Of a stretch of DNA of 8,689 nt, positions 1 to 8,689 are shown piece after piece. The notes beneath the pieces were generated by a model. That model worked only from the letters and a program-made list of their open reading frames with translations, was not told the DNA's origin and did not search any database. Source of the stretch: an uncultured Vicingus sp. (GTDB lineage Bacteria; Bacteroidota; Bacteroidia; Flavobacteriales_E; Vicingaceae); contig CAYRAD010000003.1 in NCBI GenBank assembly GCA_964422135.1, positions 15,973-24,661 of the forward strand, read 5' to 3'. The position numbers and the translations under genes are program-made. The stretch's first letter is position 1. Each line of letters starts with the position of its first letter.

Positions 1-1172
1 ACATAGCAATAATTGGTCTTGGTGTTACCAAGTTTGGAGAACTTTTTAATCAAAGTTATGAAGACTTAGTTAGAGATGCCGCAACTCAAGCTGTTAAAGA
101 TGCAGGAATTGGATTAGATGAAGTACAAGGCGCATGGCTGTCAACTGCTTTTCCAGAGATAGGAGTTTTTAAAGGAAGGAGTGGAATGGATTTAGTTGAA
201 CCACTTAACCTCTATGGAATCCCGGTAACAAGAGTTTCTAACTTTTGTGCTTCAGGAGCTGATGCCATAAGAAATGCTGCCAATGCTTTAGCTGCTGGTG
301 AATGTGATGTGGCAATGGCATTAGGTGTAGAAAAATTAAGAGACCGTTCTCCGCAAGATAGTATTGTTAAGATGATGGTTGAATTGTCTCATCCTTATTA
401 TCAAAAAGGATTTACTGCAGCAGGAACTTTTGCAGTTTACGCCAAAAGAATGATGCATGAATTTGGTTTAACAAAAGAAGATATAGCCAATGTTTCAGTG
501 AAAAATCACCTTCATGGAACATTAAACGAAAAAGCACACCACAGGATAGCTTGCACAATGGAACAAGTTATGAGTTCACCAATGGTTGCAGATCCATTAA
601 CGGTGATGGATAGTTGTCCTACAACTGATGGAGCAGCTTGTGTAATTATGGTTCGAGCAGAAGATGTTGACAAGGCAAAACACAATCCTGTTTTTGTTGA
701 TGGAATTGGTTTATCAGTTTCAACAGGATGGGATTTACCATTTTTTGACCCTAAATGCGATTTTCTTTCTTTCCAAGCGACAAAAGATGCCGCAGCTATG
801 GCCTATAAACAAGCAGGAATTACCAAACCAATTGATGAAATAGATTTGGTTGAGGTGCACGATTGTTTCTCGATAGTTGAATTGTTGACTTACGAAGATT
901 TAGGATTATGTAAGCCAGGTGAGGCGAAAGATATGATTAGAGGAAAGTCAACTCAGTTTGGTGGCGAAATTCCGGTAAATGTAAGTGGAGGATTGCTTTC
1001 ATGTGGCCATCCAGTTGGTGCAACAGGAGTAAGAATGGTTGTTGAAATTGCCAATCATCTGAGAGGAACTGCTGGAGAACGACAAGTAAAAGGAGCCAAA
1101 AGAGGCATCTCACATAATATCGGTGGTCCAGGAGCAATTGCTTCTGTAATAATATTAAATAATGAAAATTAA
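1..1172 (+). CDS. SCP2/SCPx-type thiolase (acyl-CoA C-acyltransferase), 5'-partial
   Basis: The frame is open from nt 3 and reads IAIIGLGVTKFGELFNQSYEDLVRDAATQAVKDAG, the canonical thiolase N-terminal strand. The Met at 186 in the ORF track is therefore internal and the real start is upstream of the window. The nucleophile Cys sits in VSNFCASGADAI (tgt 246-248). An HDCF motif (858-869) replaces NEAF, as in SCP2-type thiolases. GGLLSCGHPVGATG is the thiolase C-terminal signature, and there is no CxG cysteine near the C-terminus, again SCP2-like. Stop is TAA 1170-1172. Confidence 0.9.
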   Translation, partial: IAIIGLGVTKFGELFNQSYEDLVRDAATQAVKDAGIGLDEVQGAWLSTAFPEIGVFKGRSGMDLVEPLNLYGIPVTRVSNFCASGADAIRNAANALAAGECDVAMALGVEKLRDRSPQDSIVKMMVELSHPYYQKGFTAAGTFAVYAKRMMHEFGLTKEDIANVSVKNHLHGTLNEKAHHRIACTMEQVMSSPMVADPLTVMDSCPTTDGAACVIMVRAEDVDKAKHNPVFVDGIGLSVSTGWDLPFFDPKCDFLSFQATKDAAAMAYKQAGITKPIDEIDLVEVHDCFSIVELLTYEDLGLCKPGEAKDMIRGKSTQFGGEIPVNVSGGLLSCGHPVGATGVRMVVEIANHLRGTAGERQVKGAKRGISHNIGGPGAIASVIILNNEN

Positions 1173-1174
1173 AA

Positions 1175-2167
1175 ATGGATAACATGATAAATCAACAAAC
1201 ATTCAAATTAGCAATTATCCTATTGCTTTCTTTCGTTTCAACTTTAGGTTATTCTCAAGTTGCCACTGAGAATAGTAGCGAATCAACTACGCCTTCAGTA
1301 AATTCTGATATCGGAAATACAGAAACCAGGCATATATTTAAAAGAAAAGGAAATTTATATTTCTATTGGGGTTATCCTAAAGCTTATTATAGCCACAGTG
1401 ATATTAGTTTTACTGGTGATATATATGATTTTACTATTACTGATATAATGGCTACGGATGATTCTTACAAGCATGATTTTACTACTTATATTAATCCTGG
1501 AACATTCAGTATTCCAATGTATAACTGGAGATTGGGTTATTTTATTAATGACAAAACATTTATCACTTTTGGTCAGGATCACATGAAATATGAAATGAAG
1601 AAACAAGCAACATACCTTACTGGAGAAATTAGAAGTGGGGAATTTGAAGGAGTTTATGATCACACAATGGTAGTTGTTGGAGAAGATTCTAATGAAGAAA
1701 TTCTTCATACTGATTATTTAGATTCTTTACCAGGTGAATTTGTTGCAGAGTTTGAACATTGTGATGGATTAAATGATTTCGGATTTGAAATAGGTAGATT
1801 GGAGCAACTATGGATTTCAAAGAATTTGAAAAATGCGCTTTCAGTACAGGGTACTTTTGGCATGGGGATGATGATTCCGGATTCAGAAGTAGAAATAATT
1901 GAGCGTAAACCAAAACATAATAACGCAGAAGGAAGAAAATCATTTCATCTAGCAGGATACAGTTTTTCAGCAAGTATTGGAATGCAATTTGATTTTTTTA
2001 AGCACTTATTTATATTGGGAAAACTGAAAGCTGGATATATAAATTTACCTGATATCCTTACTTCTTTGGAGGGAGGAACTGCAAGCCAGCATTTTAATTT
2101 TCTAGAACCTAGTCTTGTAGTTGGTTATTCTGGGTCTATTAGTAGAAAGAAAAAAGAAAAAAAATAA
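1175..2167 (+). CDS. Secreted hypothetical protein, possible outer-membrane beta-barrel; family not recognised
   Basis: ATG 1175 lies 2 nt after the thiolase stop (alternative ATG at 1184). The N-terminus KLAIILLLSFVSTLGYSQ looks like a Sec signal peptide without a lipobox Cys. The mature part is rich in Tyr/Phe/Trp/Gly, with alternating-hydrophobic stretches (LYFYWGY, YNWRLGYFI, FHLAGYSFSASIGMQFDFF, LFILGKLKAGYI, SLVVGYSGSI) that suggest amphipathic beta strands. It ends in a Lys-rich tail, RKKKEKK, rather than a terminal aromatic residue. Function is an inference only. Confidence 0.65.
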   Translation: MDNMINQQTFKLAIILLLSFVSTLGYSQVATENSSESTTPSVNSDIGNTETRHIFKRKGNLYFYWGYPKAYYSHSDISFTGDIYDFTITDIMATDDSYKHDFTTYINPGTFSIPMYNWRLGYFINDKTFITFGQDHMKYEMKKQATYLTGEIRSGEFEGVYDHTMVVVGEDSNEEILHTDYLDSLPGEFVAEFEHCDGLNDFGFEIGRLEQLWISKNLKNALSVQGTFGMGMMIPDSEVEIIERKPKHNNAEGRKSFHLAGYSFSASIGMQFDFFKHLFILGKLKAGYINLPDILTSLEGGTASQHFNFLEPSLVVGYSGSISRKKKEKK

Positions 2168-2188: not shown

Positions 2189-2707
2189 GTGAGTACAGTA
2201 GTAAAAATAGAAAACATCGCATCTCAGGTGTTATTTGTGAGAAGTGAAAAAGTATTGCTTGATTTTCATTTAGCTAAGTTATATGAAGTAGAAACGCGTG
2301 CCTTAAAACAGCAAATTCGTAGGAATATAGAAAGATTTCCTGAAGATTTTATGTTTCAATTAACTAAACCTGAATGGCAGGAGCTCATCACAAATTGTGA
2401 TAACCTTAGTCAGTTTAAGTTTTCACCTTCACTTCCTTTTGCTTTAACCGAACAAGGAATTGCAATGCTGTCAAGTGTTTTGAGGAGTAAAAAAGCAATT
2501 GAAGTGAATATCGCGATAATGAGAACATTTGTTCAGCTCAGAAAATTAATGAGTACAAATGAAGAACTCGCAAACAAAATTGAAAGATTAGAGACAAAAT
2601 ATGATGAGCAATTTCAAATTGTATTTAACGCAATAAAGAAATTAATACATCAGGAAAATAAACCAAGAAAAGAAATAGGTTATAAAACTAACAAGAAACA
2701 GAAATAA
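2189..2707 (+). CDS. ORF6N-domain (KilA-N-related) DNA-binding protein
   Basis: GTG 2189 is the only plausible initiator. The frame opens after TGA 2171-2173, and the first in-frame ATG is deep inside the conserved domain. VLLDFHLAKLYEVETRALKQQIRRNIERFPEDFMFQLT and LPFALTEQGIAMLSSVLRSKKAIEVNIAIMRTFVQLR match the ORF6N consensus as I remember it (VMLDxDLAxLYGVxTxxLNxxVKRNxxRFPxDFMFQLT ... AFTEQGVAMLSxVLxS). The C-terminal tail is charged and coiled-coil-like. Confidence 0.82.
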   Translation: MSTVVKIENIASQVLFVRSEKVLLDFHLAKLYEVETRALKQQIRRNIERFPEDFMFQLTKPEWQELITNCDNLSQFKFSPSLPFALTEQGIAMLSSVLRSKKAIEVNIAIMRTFVQLRKLMSTNEELANKIERLETKYDEQFQIVFNAIKKLIHQENKPRKEIGYKTNKKQK

Positions 2708-2748: not shown

Positions 2749-3132
2749 ATGAAAGTATTATTAAGTAAACCAGGATTAGACGGACATGATGTAGGTGTTA
2801 AAGTACTTGCTCACGGTTTAATTGAAGCTGGATATGAAGTTGTTTATACAGGATTAAGAAAATCTATTGAAGATATTGTTCGAATGGCAATAGAAAATAA
2901 AGTAGATACCATTGGTCTTTCTATTCTCTCAGGAACACATTTAGTGTTAGCTCAAAAGATGAAAGAAGTAATGGATGAAAATAAGTTAAATATACCTTGG
3001 TTTGTTGGAGGAAATATTCCAGCACAGGATGTGGAGAAATTAGAAGCGATTGGTGCTTCAAAAGCATTTCCAACAAGTACAAAGGTGGATGAAGTTGTAG
3101 AATATTTTAATACTGTTATGATAAAAAATTAG
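2749..3132 (+). CDS. Coenzyme-B12-binding small subunit of a split acyl-CoA mutase
   Basis: The DxHxxG base-off/His-on motif is present as LDGHDVG (2779-2796). The SxL motif is in GLSILSG and the GG motif in FVGGNIP. The length (127 aa) fits a flavodoxin-like fold, and the overall pattern KPGLDGHDxGxKV...GYEVVYTGLRxSxEDIV matches methylmalonyl-CoA-mutase C-terminal domains and IcmB/HcmB-like small subunits. Confidence 0.92.
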   Translation: MKVLLSKPGLDGHDVGVKVLAHGLIEAGYEVVYTGLRKSIEDIVRMAIENKVDTIGLSILSGTHLVLAQKMKEVMDENKLNIPWFVGGNIPAQDVEKLEAIGASKAFPTSTKVDEVVEYFNTVMIKN

Positions 3133-3227: not shown

Positions 3228-4856
3228 ATGAGTACAACAAAAAATAAAACAAAGATTACAGCCGAAGATTTAGGTGTTAAAAAAGTTCACCTTGAATCAG
3301 GTATTGAAGTAGATCCTATTTATACGGCCGCTAATGTGGAAAATTCTAATAGCAAACACGAAATGCCCGGAGAATATCCTTTTACAAGAGGAATCCATAA
3401 TACGATGTATCGTAAAAGACCTTTTACCATTCGTCAGTATGCGGGGTTTGCCTCTCCTGAAGAAACCAATGAACGTTTTCAGTTTTTAATTGCCAACGGA
3501 CAATCAGGTTTAAATGTGGCCTTTGATTTACCTACTCAATGTGGATTGGATTCCGATGATCCAAGAGCTATGGGTGAAGTTGGTAGGGTTGGGATGACAG
3601 TAGATACATTAGATGATTTTGAAATTGCCTTTAAAAATATTGATTTAGATAAAATTACCGTTTCATTAACCATTAATGGCTCTGCAATTATTGCAATTGC
3701 CATGTATGTAGCTATGGCAGAAAAAGCAGGGTACGATATTAGTAAGTTAAGAGGAACAGCTCAAAATGATATTTTAAAAGAATTTATTGGTCGTGGAACC
3801 TGGATTTTTCCAGTTGATAAATCAGTAAAATTGGTTGTTGATACCATAGAATATTGTGCACAACATGTACCTAAATATAGTCCGGTTAGTGTTTGCGGAT
3901 ATCACATCAGAGAAAGTGGTGCTAACCCAATACAAGAAATGGCATATGCCTTTTGTATTGCAAAAGCTTATACTGATGGTGCATTAAGCAGAGGAATTGA
4001 CATTGATGATTTTGCATCTAGATTATCGTTTAACTTCGATATTTATGGAAATCTATTTGAACAAATTGCTAAGTTTAGAGGAGGAAGAAGATTATGGGCA
4101 AAAATAATTAGAGAAGAATATGGAGCTAAAAATGATAAATCATGTTGGTTAAGAATGATTGCCGGTGGTGGTGGAGGTGGATTAACCAAAGAACAACCAG
4201 AAAATAACATAATAAGAAGTGCCTATTATGCATTGATTAGTGCGTTATCAGGAACACAAACTATGGCTTTATGCAGCTATGATGAAGCCTACACTATTCC
4301 AACAGAACATTCTGCAGAAATCTCTTTAAGAACCATGCAAATAATGATTCATGAAATGGGAATTTGTGATACTGTTGACCCTTTAGGAGGTTCTTATTAT
4401 GTAGAATCGTTGACCGATACTTTTGAAGAGAAGATTAAGGAAGAAATGAAAACGGTAGATGAGTGGGGAGGAATTGTAAATGCAGTAGCAACTGGAAAAA
4501 TTCAAGAATCTGTTTCTAAGCAAGCATATACCAGAGAGATGGGAATGCAAGCAGGAGATGTAGATAAAGTTGGAGTAAACATTTTTACAAGAGAAGAAGA
4601 AAGTAAAGAAGTAGAATTTCATCCATACAATCAAGAGGCTGCTGACAAACAAGTTGAGAAGTTAAAACGAATTAAAGCTTCTAGAAACAATGATTTAGTA
4701 AAACAAAAACTGGATGCAATTAGAAAGGATGCTGAGGAAGATAAAAACCTAATGCCTTCAATAATAGAAGCAGTAAAAGAATATGCAACAGTTGGAGAGA
4801 TAGTACAAGTGATGAAAGATGTTTATGGTGAATTTGAAGAGCCAATTTTTTTTTAA
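3228..4856 (+). CDS. Acyl-CoA mutase large (substrate-binding TIM-barrel) subunit, methylmalonyl-CoA mutase family, divergent
   Basis: YPFTRGIHNTMYRKRPFTIRQYAGF, GLNVAFDLPTQ, GTAQNDILKEFIGRGTWIFP, GYHIRESGA, NNIIRSAYYAL and SYDEAYTIPTE align with MCM-family large subunits, most like the split archaeal type. The carboxylate-contacting pair of MCM is retained: the Tyr89 equivalent is Y71 (tat 3438-3440) and the Arg207 equivalent is R189 (cgt 3792-3794). YH (Y225-H226) is also retained. The normally conserved RxHxQT(S/A)GxSLT segment reads RMIAGGGGGGLT (4149-4187). Confidence 0.92.
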   Translation: MSTTKNKTKITAEDLGVKKVHLESGIEVDPIYTAANVENSNSKHEMPGEYPFTRGIHNTMYRKRPFTIRQYAGFASPEETNERFQFLIANGQSGLNVAFDLPTQCGLDSDDPRAMGEVGRVGMTVDTLDDFEIAFKNIDLDKITVSLTINGSAIIAIAMYVAMAEKAGYDISKLRGTAQNDILKEFIGRGTWIFPVDKSVKLVVDTIEYCAQHVPKYSPVSVCGYHIRESGANPIQEMAYAFCIAKAYTDGALSRGIDIDDFASRLSFNFDIYGNLFEQIAKFRGGRRLWAKIIREEYGAKNDKSCWLRMIAGGGGGGLTKEQPENNIIRSAYYALISALSGTQTMALCSYDEAYTIPTEHSAEISLRTMQIMIHEMGICDTVDPLGGSYYVESLTDTFEEKIKEEMKTVDEWGGIVNAVATGKIQESVSKQAYTREMGMQAGDVDKVGVNIFTREEESKEVEFHPYNQEAADKQVEKLKRIKASRNNDLVKQKLDAIRKDAEEDKNLMPSIIEAVKEYATVGEIVQVMKDVYGEFEEPIFF

Positions 4857-4922: not shown

Positions 4923-6098
4923 ATGACAAAACAAAAAACCATATTAGCTCTCGAGCAAGCATTAACGTTACCTTATGCAACAGAACGTTTTGCTCAGTTA
5001 GGTTGGAGGGTAATTCGTATAGAAACTTCTGGTAAACCCGGACAAAAAAGTCCTGGTGACCCAAATAGATATATTGGTGAAGATACTGGTGTGGATGATT
5101 TGCATGCTTATTTTATGGCTCCTAATTTAGGAAAGGAAGCCATAACTTTAAACTTAAAAGATACCAATGATCAACAGGTGCTAAAGCAGATCATCAAAGA
5201 ATTGGAAGTAGATGTGTTTATGTGTAATACACTTCCTAAACGTTACCAACAATTTGGAATTGATTACGATATTTTAAAAGAAGCGAATCCTGCATTGATA
5301 TGGTGTGGAATTTCTGCTTTCGGACCTGATTATCCTGATAGAGCTGGTTATGATCCAGCATTACAAGCCATGTTAGGTTATATGCATTTAACAGGAGAAC
5401 CAGATAGAGATCCTATGCTTTGTGGTTTGCCACTAATAGATTTAAAAGCTGGTGACGAAGCTTTTGCCCAAGTTCTCTTAGCAATGTTAGAACAAAAAGA
5501 AACAGGAAAAGGAAAACGAATTGATATTTCTATGGCACAATGTGCTACTTCGTGGTTAATTACAGCTTTACCTCAAACCCAGTTTGCTGAAGATGTTTCT
5601 AAATTATTTACAAGGAGTGGAAATGAACACAGAAGTTTTGTGCCATCTAACTGCTACCCTACAAAAGATGGCTATGTGTATTTGGCTGTTGGTAGTGATT
5701 CGCAATGGCAAAAAGTAACGGAGATTGAAGGTTTTGAGCATTGTGCTAAAGAGAATAGAACAACAAACAATGGAAGAAAATTAGATAAAGAGAACGTTTA
5801 TGCGGATATCCGAAAAGGCTTGGAAAATTATACAACAACTGAATTTATTGAAGTCTGTTTATCTCTTGGTTTAGCTGTTGCTCCAGTTAACGATGTAAAA
5901 CAAGTTGGAGAATTAGATTTCATTAAAAAGCTGATGGTAAAAACAGTATTGCCAAATGGTGAGGAGGTGATGTTATTTCCAGCACCAATGGATACGGATT
6001 ATCTAAAAGAAAGAAACAATGTAATGAGTTTGCCTCCACGATTAGGAGAGCACAACGATAAAGTGTTTAAAGAAGCAGGGATAATTGATCAAGATTAA
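4923..6098 (+). CDS. Family III CoA-transferase (CaiB/BaiF/AMACR superfamily)
   Basis: The N-terminal ILALEQALTLPYATERFAQLGWRVIRIE...GDPNR corresponds to the VLDLSxxxAGPxAxxxLADLGAxVIKVE...GDxxR motif. The central GISAFGPDYPDRAGYDPALQAMLGYMHLTGEPDRDP...IDLKAGDEAF contains the conserved Asp-x3-Gly position of the catalytic aspartate. The length (391 aa) is typical. The stop overlaps the next start (TAATG, 6096-6100). Confidence 0.9.
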   Translation: MTKQKTILALEQALTLPYATERFAQLGWRVIRIETSGKPGQKSPGDPNRYIGEDTGVDDLHAYFMAPNLGKEAITLNLKDTNDQQVLKQIIKELEVDVFMCNTLPKRYQQFGIDYDILKEANPALIWCGISAFGPDYPDRAGYDPALQAMLGYMHLTGEPDRDPMLCGLPLIDLKAGDEAFAQVLLAMLEQKETGKGKRIDISMAQCATSWLITALPQTQFAEDVSKLFTRSGNEHRSFVPSNCYPTKDGYVYLAVGSDSQWQKVTEIEGFEHCAKENRTTNNGRKLDKENVYADIRKGLENYTTTEFIEVCLSLGLAVAPVNDVKQVGELDFIKKLMVKTVLPNGEEVMLFPAPMDTDYLKERNNVMSLPPRLGEHNDKVFKEAGIIDQD

Positions 6099-8689
6099 TG
6101 GAAAACAAAGTAGTTGACATATTAACTTCTTATTCCACTCCTCACAAAGTGAGTGCAATTGGTAACGAAGCTATTGCTAGAGGTGCTATTGAGGCTGGAG
6201 TTAATGGTGTTTTCTCCTATCCAGGCACACCATCTACTGAGATTTCAGAAATCTTTAACCTAGTTAGTAATCATCAGATTGCTGAGAATGTAGAGGATGC
6301 TACTTATTTTGAATACAGCATCAACGAGAAAATTGCTTTAGAAAAAGCCATTGCCTTTTCAATAGGAAATAAAAGTGCTTTGTGTGTGATGAAAAATGTG
6401 GGAATGAATGTTGCTTCCGACCCATTAATGTCTATCACTTATCAAACCATTATTGCACCATTAGTCATTATCGTTTGTGATGATCCTGGTTGTCACTCTA
6501 GTTCTAACGAGCAAGATTCTAGGTATTGGGGAAATATGGCTTCAGTGCCAGTTTTTAACCCTGCTACTCCAAAGGATGCTTACGAAATGACAAAGCAAGC
6601 ATTTAAGCTTTCAGCAGAATTGAGATTACCCGTTATTGTAAGAACAACCACTCGTGTTTCACATACTAGAGGAATGTTAGCGTACAATGAAATAAATACA
6701 GATAACAGAGAAGCCCATTTTGATAGAATGCCTGAGCACATTAATATTCCAGCTCGTACAGCAGCAGCTCATCAAAAATTACTCAATAAATTACACAGCG
6801 AAACAGTTGAACCTTTCTTCAAGCAATTCAATAGAATAATATTGAATAACAAGGGTAAATTAGGAATAATCAGTAGTGGAGTTGCAACAACTTATCTGTT
6901 AGAAATCATCAAACGAAACGAATTAGAAAATCAAGTTCAGCTATTAGATTTAGGTTTAATCTTTCCTTTTCCAGAACAAGATGTATTAACATTTTTACAA
7001 AAAGGAGTTGAAAAAGTGATGGTGGTTGAAGAATTAGATCCCATTATTGAAAATGCTGTTAGAAATAGTGTTCAAAAAAATAATCTGAACTGTCAGATTG
7101 TAGGAAAACAAGAAAGCAGTTTAAGTACTACAGGGGAATTTACTTTAGGTCAAATAGATAAAGCCATAGCGAATTTCTTTGAAATAGAAACAGTAGGAAA
7201 AGAAGGATTGAATGATGTTGCAGCTTATGATGAGAACTTACCTCCACGACCACCGGCTTTATGCTCAGGTTGTCCACACCGAGCAAGTTATTATGCATTA
7301 AAACTAATTGTTCCTCAGAAAAATTCACTTTCAGGAGAGGGAGTTCATGATACTATATTATGTGGAGATATTGGTTGCTCAGGATTGGGAGCCTTGCCAC
7401 CATTAAAAATGATTGATACCATTAACCATATGGGAATGAGCATTTCCATGGCTCAGGGACTTTCTCAAGCATTAAATACTAATTCTCCCCCTTTAGGAGA
7501 GATGTCCGAAGGACAGAAGGGGACTAAAGTGGTAGCTATGTTGGGTGATGGCACTTTTTTTCACTCTGGAATATCCTCTTTATTGAATGCGGTCTATACC
7601 AAAACTAATATGTTGGTCATTATTTTTGATAATAGAACCATCGGAATGACGGGGCATCAGGATCATCCCGGGGCTACTCACCAAGACAAATATCACGAAA
7701 TTGAAATTGAGCCTTTAGTGAAAGGAATGGGGGTGGAATTTGTAGAAACACTGATGCCTTTCGATATGAAAGATACCTATAAGAAAGTGGAAGACGCAAT
7801 GGCTCAAGAAGGTGTTTCAGTTTTAGTCTCAAAAGCACCATGTGTTTTCTTGCCCGATTATATCAACTACACCAAGCAAGATTCAAAAATTATTATTGAC
7901 CATAGCCGGTGCAATACTTGTCATAATCATGCTGATAGTGAAATTATTTGCTCAAAAATGGCAAATTCCAATTCGAGTTTAACTCGGGCTATTGCTAAAA
8001 TTAAAGCCGAGAAAAGAGTAGATTCTAAAGATCAAGCATGCCCGGCAAACATTTGTAACCATGGCTTCTTTAATTCAATTTTAGAAAAAGATTACAAAAC
8101 TGCATTGAATATGGTTAGGGATAAACTGTTGTTTTCACGAACCTGTGGAGATATCTGTCATAGACCATGCGAATTGTTCTCCAATCATGAATCAGATTCT
8201 ACAATTCCAATTAAGCAGTTAAAGAAATTTGTTTCAAACATCGATGAGAATTTTGAAGATTTTTCCACAACATTTTTACAAGTAGAAAATGCAACAAAAA
8301 AAGACAAAAACATAGCAATAATAGGAGCTGGACCTGCCGGATTAAGTGCTGCTTACGATTTAATACGAACAGGATATAAGGTAACCGTTTTTGAGAAAGA
8401 AGCTGAAGCAGGTGGCTTAATTAAGTATGTGATTCCTGATTTTAGAATGGATAAAAAAGGATTTGATTTTGAAGTTGGACAGCTTGCAAAAATGGGTGTT
8501 CAATTTAACTTCAATACTTCGCTTGGAAAAGATATTTATTTGGACGAACTATCGAATCAATATGATGGATTAATCATTGCACTGGGATTAGGAAAATCAA
8601 AAGAACTGGATATTATTAAATCAGTTTCAGATGAACAGAAATTTGATGCGTTGACCTTTCTTATAGCATACAATCACATATCTCCAACT
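6098..8689 (+). CDS. IorA-type TPP-dependent 2-oxoacid oxidoreductase fused to a GltD/NfnB-like Fe-S + FAD/NAD(P)H oxidoreductase module, 3'-partial
   Basis: This ORF is not in the supplied track. I translated frame 2 from ATG 6098 to nt 8689 as 864 codons with no stop. IorA hallmarks are GNEAIARGAIEAGVNGVFSYPGTPSTEI, RPPALCSGCPHR (around 7247-7282) and the TPP motif GDGTFFHSG...IIFDNRTIGMTGHQ (GDG at 7544-7552). From about residue 605 (nt 7910) there are eight Cys in a GltD-like N-terminal arrangement, including ACPANICNHGFF and SRTCGDICHRPCE. A dinucleotide-binding fold follows: NIAIIGAGPAGLSAAYDLIRTGYKVTVFEKEAEAGGLIKYVIPDFRM (from 8309). The ORF continues beyond the window. Confidence 0.87.
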   Translation, partial: MENKVVDILTSYSTPHKVSAIGNEAIARGAIEAGVNGVFSYPGTPSTEISEIFNLVSNHQIAENVEDATYFEYSINEKIALEKAIAFSIGNKSALCVMKNVGMNVASDPLMSITYQTIIAPLVIIVCDDPGCHSSSNEQDSRYWGNMASVPVFNPATPKDAYEMTKQAFKLSAELRLPVIVRTTTRVSHTRGMLAYNEINTDNREAHFDRMPEHINIPARTAAAHQKLLNKLHSETVEPFFKQFNRIILNNKGKLGIISSGVATTYLLEIIKRNELENQVQLLDLGLIFPFPEQDVLTFLQKGVEKVMVVEELDPIIENAVRNSVQKNNLNCQIVGKQESSLSTTGEFTLGQIDKAIANFFEIETVGKEGLNDVAAYDENLPPRPPALCSGCPHRASYYALKLIVPQKNSLSGEGVHDTILCGDIGCSGLGALPPLKMIDTINHMGMSISMAQGLSQALNTNSPPLGEMSEGQKGTKVVAMLGDGTFFHSGISSLLNAVYTKTNMLVIIFDNRTIGMTGHQDHPGATHQDKYHEIEIEPLVKGMGVEFVETLMPFDMKDTYKKVEDAMAQEGVSVLVSKAPCVFLPDYINYTKQDSKIIIDHSRCNTCHNHADSEIICSKMANSNSSLTRAIAKIKAEKRVDSKDQACPANICNHGFFNSILEKDYKTALNMVRDKLLFSRTCGDICHRPCELFSNHESDSTIPIKQLKKFVSNIDENFEDFSTTFLQVENATKKDKNIAIIGAGPAGLSAAYDLIRTGYKVTVFEKEAEAGGLIKYVIPDFRMDKKGFDFEVGQLAKMGVQFNFNTSLGKDIYLDELSNQYDGLIIALGLGKSKELDIIKSVSDEQKFDALTFLIAYNHISPT

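Follow-up and report, generated by a model that had tools for sequence, protein, structure and literature searches.

Glycine run and second remodelled strand in a subfamily of B12-dependent acyl-CoA mutases from operons resembling the indoleacetate (iaa) cluster

The window analysed here is a stretch of 8,689 nucleotides from an uncultured Vicingus sp. (GenBank assembly GCA_964422135.1, contig CAYRAD010000003.1, positions 15,973 to 24,661). It contains the genes of a two-subunit mutase, mutS (small subunit) and mutL (large subunit), and the large subunit carries six consecutive glycines in a strand of its barrel. Judged by its domains (PF01642 and PF02310), the gene pair belongs to the superfamily of adenosylcobalamin (AdoCbl)-dependent acyl-CoA mutases. 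It is probably a working AdoCbl mutase of the proposed IaaGH type, which would interconvert (2-aminophenyl)succinyl-CoA and (2-aminobenzyl)malonyl-CoA. Direct observations are the glycine motif and its conservation, its co-variation with a second strand reading MALC, the catalytic residues that the enzyme retains, its fold, and the synteny of the mutase with a dehydrogenase carrying the IaaF signature.

Two remodelled strands in the mutase barrel

The run was found in residues 308-320 of the large subunit, where the initial annotation had placed it on the open reading frame, and the glycines are encoded by ggt ggt ggt gga ggt gga at 4164-4181 (feature coordinates in Table 1). Given 7.7% glycine in the protein, the chance expectation of a six-glycine run was 1.2e-4. 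When the protein was compared with the PDB (phmmer), the alignments were free of gaps at the run, which stood opposite LRFHCQTAAATLT in HCM (4r3u), LRAHCQTSGWSLT in human methylmalonyl-CoA mutase (MCM) and LRTHSQTSGWSLT in the MCMs of M. tuberculosis and P. shermanii. The positions map to P. shermanii MCM (numbering: chain index + 1) as follows: I311 to H328, G313 to Q330, G314 to T331, G315 to S332, G316 to G333, G317 to W334 and G318 to S335. H328/Q330/T331/S332/W334/S335 are replaced by I/G/G/G/G/G. The exchanges of His for Ile, Gln for Gly and Thr for Gly without any change in length had been proposed before, and the gapless alignments agreed with them. We take H328 and Q330 to line the substrate site of MCM, G333 to touch the corrin and E370 to touch the adenosyl ribose; E370 is retained as E353 of the large subunit. 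An AlphaFold2 (AF2) model had a strand at R309-G314 and coil at 315-323, i.e. a loop on the C-terminal end of the strand, and in this model the loop sits at the catalytic face of the TIM barrel.

Conservation was checked in 80 genome loci with relatives at 71-96% identity, many of which end at contig ends. RMIAGGGG(G/A)GLT was present in all 80, and MIAGGGGGGLT in all 120 closest database proteins listed (80-96% identity). The 80 loci had 80 distinct nucleotide versions of the run, and each glycine position used all four glycine codons. Because the residues were invariant while the synonymous sites were saturated, the glycine itself is, on this codon evidence, under strong purifying selection and not a slippage repeat. 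A slippage or low-complexity artefact was ruled out by the codon data. A variable surface loop was ruled out by the gapless match to a barrel strand together with the invariance, and the earlier placement in an active-site strand held. In an 89-sequence alignment spanning the identity range of the subfamily (A1; many phyla, mean column identity of 68%), M310, A312, G313-G316, G318, L319 and T320 were invariant.

In a scan of 1.84 billion representatives at 50% identity, the clade of the window formed one cluster, and the score fell from 993 to 573 bits at the next one. This next representative (P0121) is a fused B12-domain/barrel protein with 51% identity and the motif MMAGGGGGGLT. Searches from P0121 and from a 'Deltaproteobacteria' member (P0335) found [RK]M[IL]AGGGGxGLT retained in proteins sharing 50-67% identity with the window protein. 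This wider motif occurred in hosts that include Chloroflexi, Acidobacteria, Planctomycetes, Myxococcota, Acidimicrobiales and Thermoplasmata; the proteins came both split and fused. The only variable residue was the one at the fifth position of the run (G, A, S, K or M). Among the matches listed for the window protein, P0121 and P0335, most were from uncultured lineages, and the best homologues lay on Bacteroidota contigs of 1.5-3.3 Mb. The mutases found on plasmids (tblastn) were all below 48% identity and included no member with the glycine run, and no member of the subfamily was found among the PDB chains with phmmer. In the databases, these proteins are named methylmalonyl-CoA mutase.

The initial annotation had described HxQT as near-invariant in the superfamily, which was too broad. 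Only 44 of ~150 listed 50%-identity superfamily representatives kept the pattern, and its invariance was confined to enzymes that have been solved or characterised (MCM, HCM, IcmF). The 44 representatives were used for the analysis of specificity positions, in which they were compared with the glycine-run subfamily. The subfamily-invariant differences were N96 (S114 in MCM), N269 (F287), I311, G313, G314, T345-M-A-L-C349 (S362-N366) and M370. MALC stood in place of LHTN in 349 of 351 glycine-run proteins. HxQT was paired with LHTN in 30 representatives, and clades that had lost one had mostly lost the other. This covariation is in line with two adjacent strands of the barrel that face a common cavity. 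By these comparisons, the glycine run is only half of the active-site remodelling.

The large subunit matched PF01642 over profile positions 3-512 of 512 (1.7e-189), and its top match among all PDB chains was the large subunit of HCM (4r3u, 9e-145). The AF2 model of the large subunit had a pLDDT of 80.9 and a pTM of 0.86, with a Foldseek TMq of 0.83 to 4r3u and 0.82-0.84 to MCM. The small subunit scored 108 bits on TIGR00640 (cutoff of 57). The equivalents of Tyr89, Gln197, Arg207, Tyr243 and His244 of MCM were all present; Q179, the equivalent of Gln197, was invariant in A1 as well. Y71, R189 and H226, which the initial annotation had named as retained, were found in RQYAGF, GRGTW and GYHIR. 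The two strands departed from canonical MCM, with RMIAGGGGGGLT and TMALC in place of R-x-H-x-Q-T-S-G-W-S-L-T and S-L-H-T-N. The score on PRK09426, the NCBIfam equivalog of MCM, was 526 bits (cutoff of 876), a shortfall that is partly expected for a large subunit without a fused B12 domain.

Dozens of mutase clades (representatives P0121-P0269) had other residue combinations in the HxQT strand, in the LHTN strand and at the positions of Tyr89 and Arg207. To judge from these residues, such varied clades point to many uncharacterised substrate specificities. The nearest sister clades, at 48-50% identity, were P0124 (locus L085) and P0122 (locus L082). P0124 reads FAGGNGISLT / IHVP and lies beside a CoA-transferase, two amidohydrolases, PreT/PreA-like dihydropyrimidine-dehydrogenase genes and a glyoxalase-fold protein, in surroundings that are also dihydropyrimidinase-like. 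P0122 reads LAGGNGSLLT / VETA and lies beside a carboxyltransferase. From motif and surroundings, both may be further mutases acting on substituted succinyl-CoA.

Conserved operon and its iaa-type neighbours

The order thiolase, mutS, mutL, CoA-transferase and oxidoreductase was kept across the 80 loci. The census, in which contig ends cut many loci short, gave mutS in 74 loci, CoA-transferase in 69, IOR in 62, acyl-CoA dehydrogenase (ACAD) in 60, hydantoinase B (HydB) in 51, Fer2 in 50, hydantoinase A (HydA) in 47 and the molybdenum subunit (MoCo) in 44. The glycine run marks a clade that is found together with a specific gene neighbourhood, as had been suspected. In 74 of the 80 loci mutS adjoins the large subunit. 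The CoA-transferase lies downstream of the mutase, mostly directly adjoining (69 of 80 loci plus L083 and L086-L090), and in 39 of the 80 a thiolase of the SCP-x/BbsB type lies on the upstream side of mutS and mutL.

Locus L081 shows the operon beyond the window. Its genes encode, in order, a FadB-like hydratase/dehydrogenase, HydA, HydB, a small hydrolase, RidA, an ACAD, a DUF35/condensing-enzyme-like protein, thiolase, mutS, mutL, CoA-transferase, an IOR-alpha/GltD fusion, IOR-beta, a three-subunit Mo-hydroxylase (2Fe-2S, MoCo and FAD) and a HisC-family aminotransferase. A matching gene set surrounds the glycine-run mutases of a Myxococcota metagenome-assembled genome (MAG; L086), a Chloroflexi MAG (L087), a 'Deltaproteobacteria' MAG (L089, a compact operon of 11 genes) and the fused-mutase locus L083. 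The top NCBIfam matches were caprolactamase alpha/beta for HydA/B, IOR alpha/beta for the oxidoreductase (OFOR) and XdhA / 4-hydroxybenzoyl-CoA reductase alpha for the Mo subunit, all under their equivalog cutoffs. The HisC-family aminotransferase, as the exception, passed its NCBIfam cutoff. These matches agree with the roles proposed below.

The IOR-alpha fusion of L081 (12848-16231, 1127 aa) had TIGR03336 IOR_alpha as its top match (584.6 bits, cutoff of 650.9), and an IOR beta-like gene follows it. The fused IOR-alpha/GltD proteins were 1127-1171 aa long. Their domain make-up suggests a 2-oxoacid oxidoreductase that would be wired straight to pyridine nucleotides and not to free ferredoxin. 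Some loci labelled as Marinimicrobia (e.g. L028 and L041) had a far more distant oxidoreductase at the place of IOR (25-27% identity).

Reportedly, the Aromatoleum cluster described by Ebenau-Jehle in 2012 includes a Mo enzyme, and the arylsuccinyl-CoA mutase of the Aromatoleum iaa pathway is said to have been predicted in that year. The anaerobic indoleacetate pathway of Aromatoleum ends at 2-aminobenzoyl-CoA (PMC9613470). Its steps comprise the activation to indoleacetyl-CoA, the transferase IaaL, the mutase IaaGH and the decarboxylating benzylmalonyl-CoA dehydrogenase IaaF (PMC8360864). IaaL is a family-III phenylsuccinyl-CoA transferase with intra- and intermolecular transfer, and IaaGH is the proposed phenylsuccinyl/benzylmalonyl-CoA mutase (PMC8360864). 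Every enzyme of the IaaF subclass carries GGG at the site of the YEG found in other acyl-CoA dehydrogenases, and every one is encoded in an operon of the iaa type; the authors linked GGG to bulky alpha-substituted substrates (PMC8360864). The iaaF gene of A. aromaticum EbN1 is ebA2055 (WP_011236983), and it shares the iaa operon with the mutase genes. Hydantoinase-family enzymes were predicted to be 2-oxoindoleacetyl-CoA gamma-lactamases (PMC5214803).

The same dehydrogenase signature was found here. The ACAD near the mutase of L081 (L081:5957-7084), outside the 8.7-kb window and in the same operon, reads ..IGGGTSEI... GGG replaced YEG in the ACAD of all 60 loci with an ACAD (60/60) and also in L081, L083, L086 (in a shifted frame), L087 and L089. 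The neighbours that mark an iaa-type mutase were found: an ACAD of the IaaF subclass, a family-III CoA-transferase and a hydantoinase-family alpha/beta pair with a Mo-hydroxylase. The likeness of the transferase to IaaL is one of family and position.

Individual loci deviated from the common layout. In L086, the gene call at 6756-10004 merges HydB, ACAD and the B12 subunit into a product of 1082 aa, with the ACAD C-terminus and its GGG in another frame; this likely reflects frameshifts in a GC-rich MAG and not a true fusion. Five loci (L037, L063, L065, L070 and L071) have a canonical thiolase and an enoyl-CoA-hydratase-family protein of ~700 aa between mutS and mutL, a layout that stands in for the upstream pair of SCP-x-type thiolase and DUF35 protein.

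The window itself is AT-rich (GC content of 35%), and every gene lies on the forward strand (Table 1). The NCBIfam top matches of its thiolase were thiolase-domain proteins including the benzoylsuccinyl-CoA thiolase BbsB, all under cutoff. The 330-aa protein had no family match in Pfam or NCBIfam, and its homologues were found between thiolase and mutS in only six of the 80 loci (L007, L011, L013, L036, L043 and L076). Possibly it serves the pathway as an accessory for uptake or in the outer membrane. Among the 80 loci, an ORF6N gene was present at this place only in L004 and L048 and looks like a mobile or regulatory insertion. Both genes are local insertions, and the ORF6N gene is outside the conserved operon. 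The Pfam domains of the IOR-alpha fusion in the window were POR_N, TPP_enzyme_C, Fer4_20 and Pyr_redox_2.

Table 1. Features of the window, with positions counted from its first letter
Feature	Position	Strand	Evidence or remark
Thiolase, SCP-x/BbsB-type, 5' end cut by the window	3..1172	+	Pfam Thiolase_C_1, Thiolase_N
330-aa protein with signal-like hydrophobic N-terminus	1175..2167	+	between thiolase and mutS
ORF6N-domain protein	2189..2707	+	Pfam PF10543, 1.8e-28
Mutase small subunit (mutS), 127 aa, B12-binding domain	2749..3132	+	PF02310; TIGR00640
DGHDVG, cobalamin His-ligand motif (DxHxxG), small-subunit residues 11-16	2779..2796	+	regex match
Mutase large subunit (mutL), 542 aa, substrate-binding TIM barrel, glycine-run/MALC subfamily	3228..4856	+	PF01642
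Y71, equivalent of MCM Tyr89, carboxylate contact, in RQYAGF	3438..3440	+	invariant in A1
R189, equivalent of MCM Arg207, carboxylate contact, in FIGRGTW	3792..3794	+	invariant in A1
Y225-H226, equivalents of MCM Tyr243-His244, in GYHIR	3900..3905	+	invariant in A1
LRMIAGGGGGGLT, residues 308-320, barrel strand and following loop, in place of MCM L325-T337	4149..4187	+	gapless alignments
QTMALC, second remodelled strand, in place of MCM Q361-S-L-H-T-N366	4257..4274	+	specificity-position analysis
Family-III CoA-transferase, predicted IaaL-like arylsuccinyl-CoA (intra/inter-molecular) transferase	4923..6098	+	PF02515, 2.2e-70
IOR alpha fused to GltD-like 4Fe-4S/FAD/NAD(P)-binding module, 3' end cut	6098..8689	+	open to window end

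Proposed pathway and rival explanations

Substrate, pocket geometry and tryptophan as the entry point are what we infer from these observations. In the proposed pathway, the HisC-family aminotransferase would convert tryptophan to indolepyruvate, and the IOR fused to the GltD-like module would convert indolepyruvate to indoleacetyl-CoA. The Mo-hydroxylase would yield 2-oxoindoleacetyl-CoA, and the ATP-dependent gamma-lactamase of the HydA/B type would open the ring to (2-aminophenyl)succinyl-CoA. The family-III transferase would then shift CoA to the other carboxyl group, next to the aryl-bearing carbon, and the mutase would form (2-aminobenzyl)malonyl-CoA by an MCM-type 1,2-shift of the thioester carbonyl. 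The IaaF-type GGG dehydrogenase would release CO2 and give 2-aminocinnamoyl-CoA, from which hydratase/dehydrogenase and thiolase would produce 2-aminobenzoyl-CoA and acetyl-CoA.

In the mutase, Tyr71, Arg189, Gln179, Tyr225 and His226 would hold the free carboxylate and the thioester, as in MCM. In the malonyl-to-succinyl direction, hydrogen would be taken from the benzylic CH2; therefore, the carbon that bears the aryl ring would be the one nearest to the adenosyl radical and the corrin. In MCM, the strands 328-335 and 363-366 lie at this site. Gly, Ala, Ile, Met, Leu and Cys in both strands would open a largely apolar cavity for the aryl ring, and the glycines may in this way make an aryl pocket.

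Because the aminotransferase and IOR replace the ligase entry of Aromatoleum, tryptophan is suggested as the feedstock, and not only free indoleacetate. In locus L090 (10001-16704), a fused glycine-run mutase and a CoA-transferase lie by a class-III aminotransferase, a cyclase of the kynurenine-formamidase family and a kynureninase-like gene; neither a lactamase nor a Mo enzyme lies in the vicinity. These kynurenine-formamidase-like and kynureninase neighbours link the glycine-run mutase to tryptophan independently. The layout hints at cross-talk of the kynurenine route and an iaa-like route to anthranilate.

Several points weigh against an IaaGH-type mutase. Many hosts are aerobic Bacteroidota, whereas the iaa pathway is known from degraders of aromatic compounds that are anaerobic or denitrifying. 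In the archaeal locus L088, neither lactamase nor Mo enzyme was present within 10 kb, only β-oxidation genes and the transferase. The confidence of the AF2 model was poor at both remodelled strands (pLDDT ~59 at 311-320 and <50 at 345-358). The transferase, the lactamase, the Mo enzyme and the ACAD reached no NCBIfam equivalog cutoff and were assigned by family and synteny. The likeness to IaaGH is one of operon content. The activity of IaaGH itself is proposed, not assayed, in the published accounts (PMC8360864).

The same mechanism might act on another bulky 2-substituted succinyl-CoA, for example one derived from another N-heterocyclic or aromatic 2-oxoacid or one of the alkylsuccinyl-CoA type, and the cluster would then serve a pathway other than that of tryptophan/indoleacetate. 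IOR-type enzymes accept several arylpyruvates, the cluster enzymes fall short of equivalog cutoffs (the aminotransferase excepted), the oxidoreductase of Marinimicrobia-type loci is just 25-27% identical, and the sister clades P0124 and P0122, with related motifs, occupy different gene contexts. However, the ACAD carries the IaaF-specific GGG, which the literature ties to iaa operons (PMC8360864), and the Mo-hydroxylase and the lactamase together require a ring CH beside nitrogen, as at C2 of indole. L090 ties the mutase to kynurenine-pathway genes, and the invariance of the motif across phyla argues for one substrate. We regard a different bulky substrate as unlikely.

An ordinary methylmalonyl-CoA mutase whose active-site strand tolerates glycines would explain the database name, the same fold and the retained Tyr, Arg, His and Gln of the substrate site. 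It would leave unexplained at least 10 subfamily-invariant differences on active-site segments of MCM (S114, F287, H328, Q330, T331 and S362-N366). HxQT is kept in all solved MCM, HCM and IcmF structures. The gene lists of L081, L086, L087 and L089 contained no propionyl-CoA carboxylase and no MeaB-type chaperone, and the sole possible epimerase among them was a glyoxalase-fold gene in L087. Moreover, the mutase is locked to a transferase of the arylsuccinyl type and a dehydrogenase of the IaaF type. Such an enzyme is distinctly improbable here. The remaining explanation is a catalytically dead paralogue comparable to the MutA beta chain of P. shermanii MCM, or else an artefact of slippage or low complexity. 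In its favour, runs of glycine commonly serve as linkers, the six codons (ggt ggt ggt gga ggt gga) come close to a repeat, and AF2 confidence was low at the run. The amino acids were nevertheless invariant with saturated synonymous sites in 80 loci, the catalytic residues were invariant at a mean column identity of 68%, and a dedicated B12 subunit with DxHxxG is present. The match to the true beta chain was just 8e-20, as against 1e-99 to 1e-145 for catalytic chains. Because the motif, the catalytic residues and the DxHxxG motif are all kept, an inactive or degenerate protein, which the initial annotation had left as an alternative, is very unlikely; strong purifying selection speaks against it, and we give this explanation next to no weight.

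An active mutase of the IaaGH type therefore remains the preferred reading. The broader claim, that the glycine-run/MALC mutase and the GGG dehydrogenase together mark a B12-dependent, oxygen-independent route from tryptophan by way of indolepyruvate and indoleacetyl-CoA to 2-aminobenzoyl-CoA, one much more widespread than the few anaerobic aromatic degraders known to have the iaa pathway, has about an even chance of being right.

Known systems and biological meaning

With IaaGH of Aromatoleum aromaticum and A. evansii (Ebenau-Jehle 2012; Schuhle 2016, 2021), the window enzyme shares the two-subunit B12 mutase, the neighbouring IaaL-type transferase, IaaF-type GGG dehydrogenase and hydantoinase-family lactamase, and the (here proposed) end product 2-aminobenzoyl-CoA. 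The operons differ in their entry, which is by aminotransferase and IOR in the window type and by the ligase IaaB and the binding protein IaaM in Aromatoleum. Hosts of the window type are mostly Bacteroidota or uncultured, whereas iaa hosts are denitrifiers or sulfate reducers that degrade aromatic compounds. The window-type loci whose gene lists were examined showed no ETF gene. IaaF offers a parallel in design, with an active-site motif changed from YEG to GGG that also occurs in the ACAD beside window-type mutases; it is not homologous to the mutase and has another fold and another chemistry (PMC8360864).

Compared with MCM (P. shermanii 1REQ/4REQ, human 2XIJ), the window enzyme has the same fold (TMq 0.82-0.84), 34-40% identity, the DxHxxG His-on mode of B12 binding and the equivalents of Tyr89/Gln197/Arg207/Tyr243/His244/Glu370. 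It differs in the I/G/G/G/G/G exchanges described above, in M-A-L-C for L363-H-T-N366, in N for S114 and for F287, in its split subunits and in its genomic context. HcmAB (4R3U) was the best PDB match and also has split large and small subunits, yet HCM keeps HCQT and LHTN and the window enzyme has lost both. HCM replaces Tyr89 and Arg207 for its uncharged hydroxy-acyl substrate, whereas the window enzyme keeps Tyr and Arg. The chemically closest characterised analogue is ethylmalonyl-CoA mutase (Ecm/MeaA), which acts on a pair of 2-substituted succinyl-CoA and substituted malonyl-CoA in which the substituted carbon is the one that gives up hydrogen. The substituent there is methyl, while aryl is proposed here, and the likeness is one of chemistry.

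The specificity of these mutases has so far been explained by few residues, chiefly Tyr89/Arg207 versus Phe/Gln or Ile/Asp. Literature searches on Gln330 and on Tyr89/Arg207 specificity found nothing, and no description of the glycine signature was found in the literature searched. Within this literature, the mutase was mentioned only in PMC8360864, without sequence features or assay. The two-strand glycine-run/MALC signature and the wide distribution of the operon appear undescribed. Of the new mutase subfamily that the initial annotation had expected, the distinct clade stood; the idea is not conceptually new, as IaaGH had already been proposed (PMC8360864). Its expectation of a bulkier substituted succinyl/malonyl-CoA substrate was borne out in that the gene neighbourhood points to an aryl-substituted one, and phenylsuccinyl-CoA had been among the substrates listed for assay.

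On present sequence data, the glycine-run mutases are a large, uncharacterised branch of the B12 acyl-CoA mutases. The subfamily keeps the Tyr89/Arg207 equivalents and empties two other strands of side chains. The signature gives a testable rule for spotting mutases of aryl- or bulky-substituted succinyl-CoA that are now labelled 'methylmalonyl-CoA mutase' in genomes, and a starting point for engineering mutases toward polyketide extender units of the benzylmalonyl-CoA type. If the proposed route is real, many Bacteroidota, Marinimicrobia, Ignavibacteria, Chloroflexi, Myxococcota, Planctomycetes, Acidobacteria and some archaea would have it as a core operon. The mutase of this route would admit an aryl group at the radical-bearing carbon by a new means, namely two barrel strands stripped of side chains. 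The conserved operon suggests that oxygen-independent, cobalamin-requiring catabolism of tryptophan or auxin is common among environmental Bacteroidota and in several further phyla. If common, such catabolism would matter for the B12 demand of these communities and for their auxin turnover and anthranilate supply.

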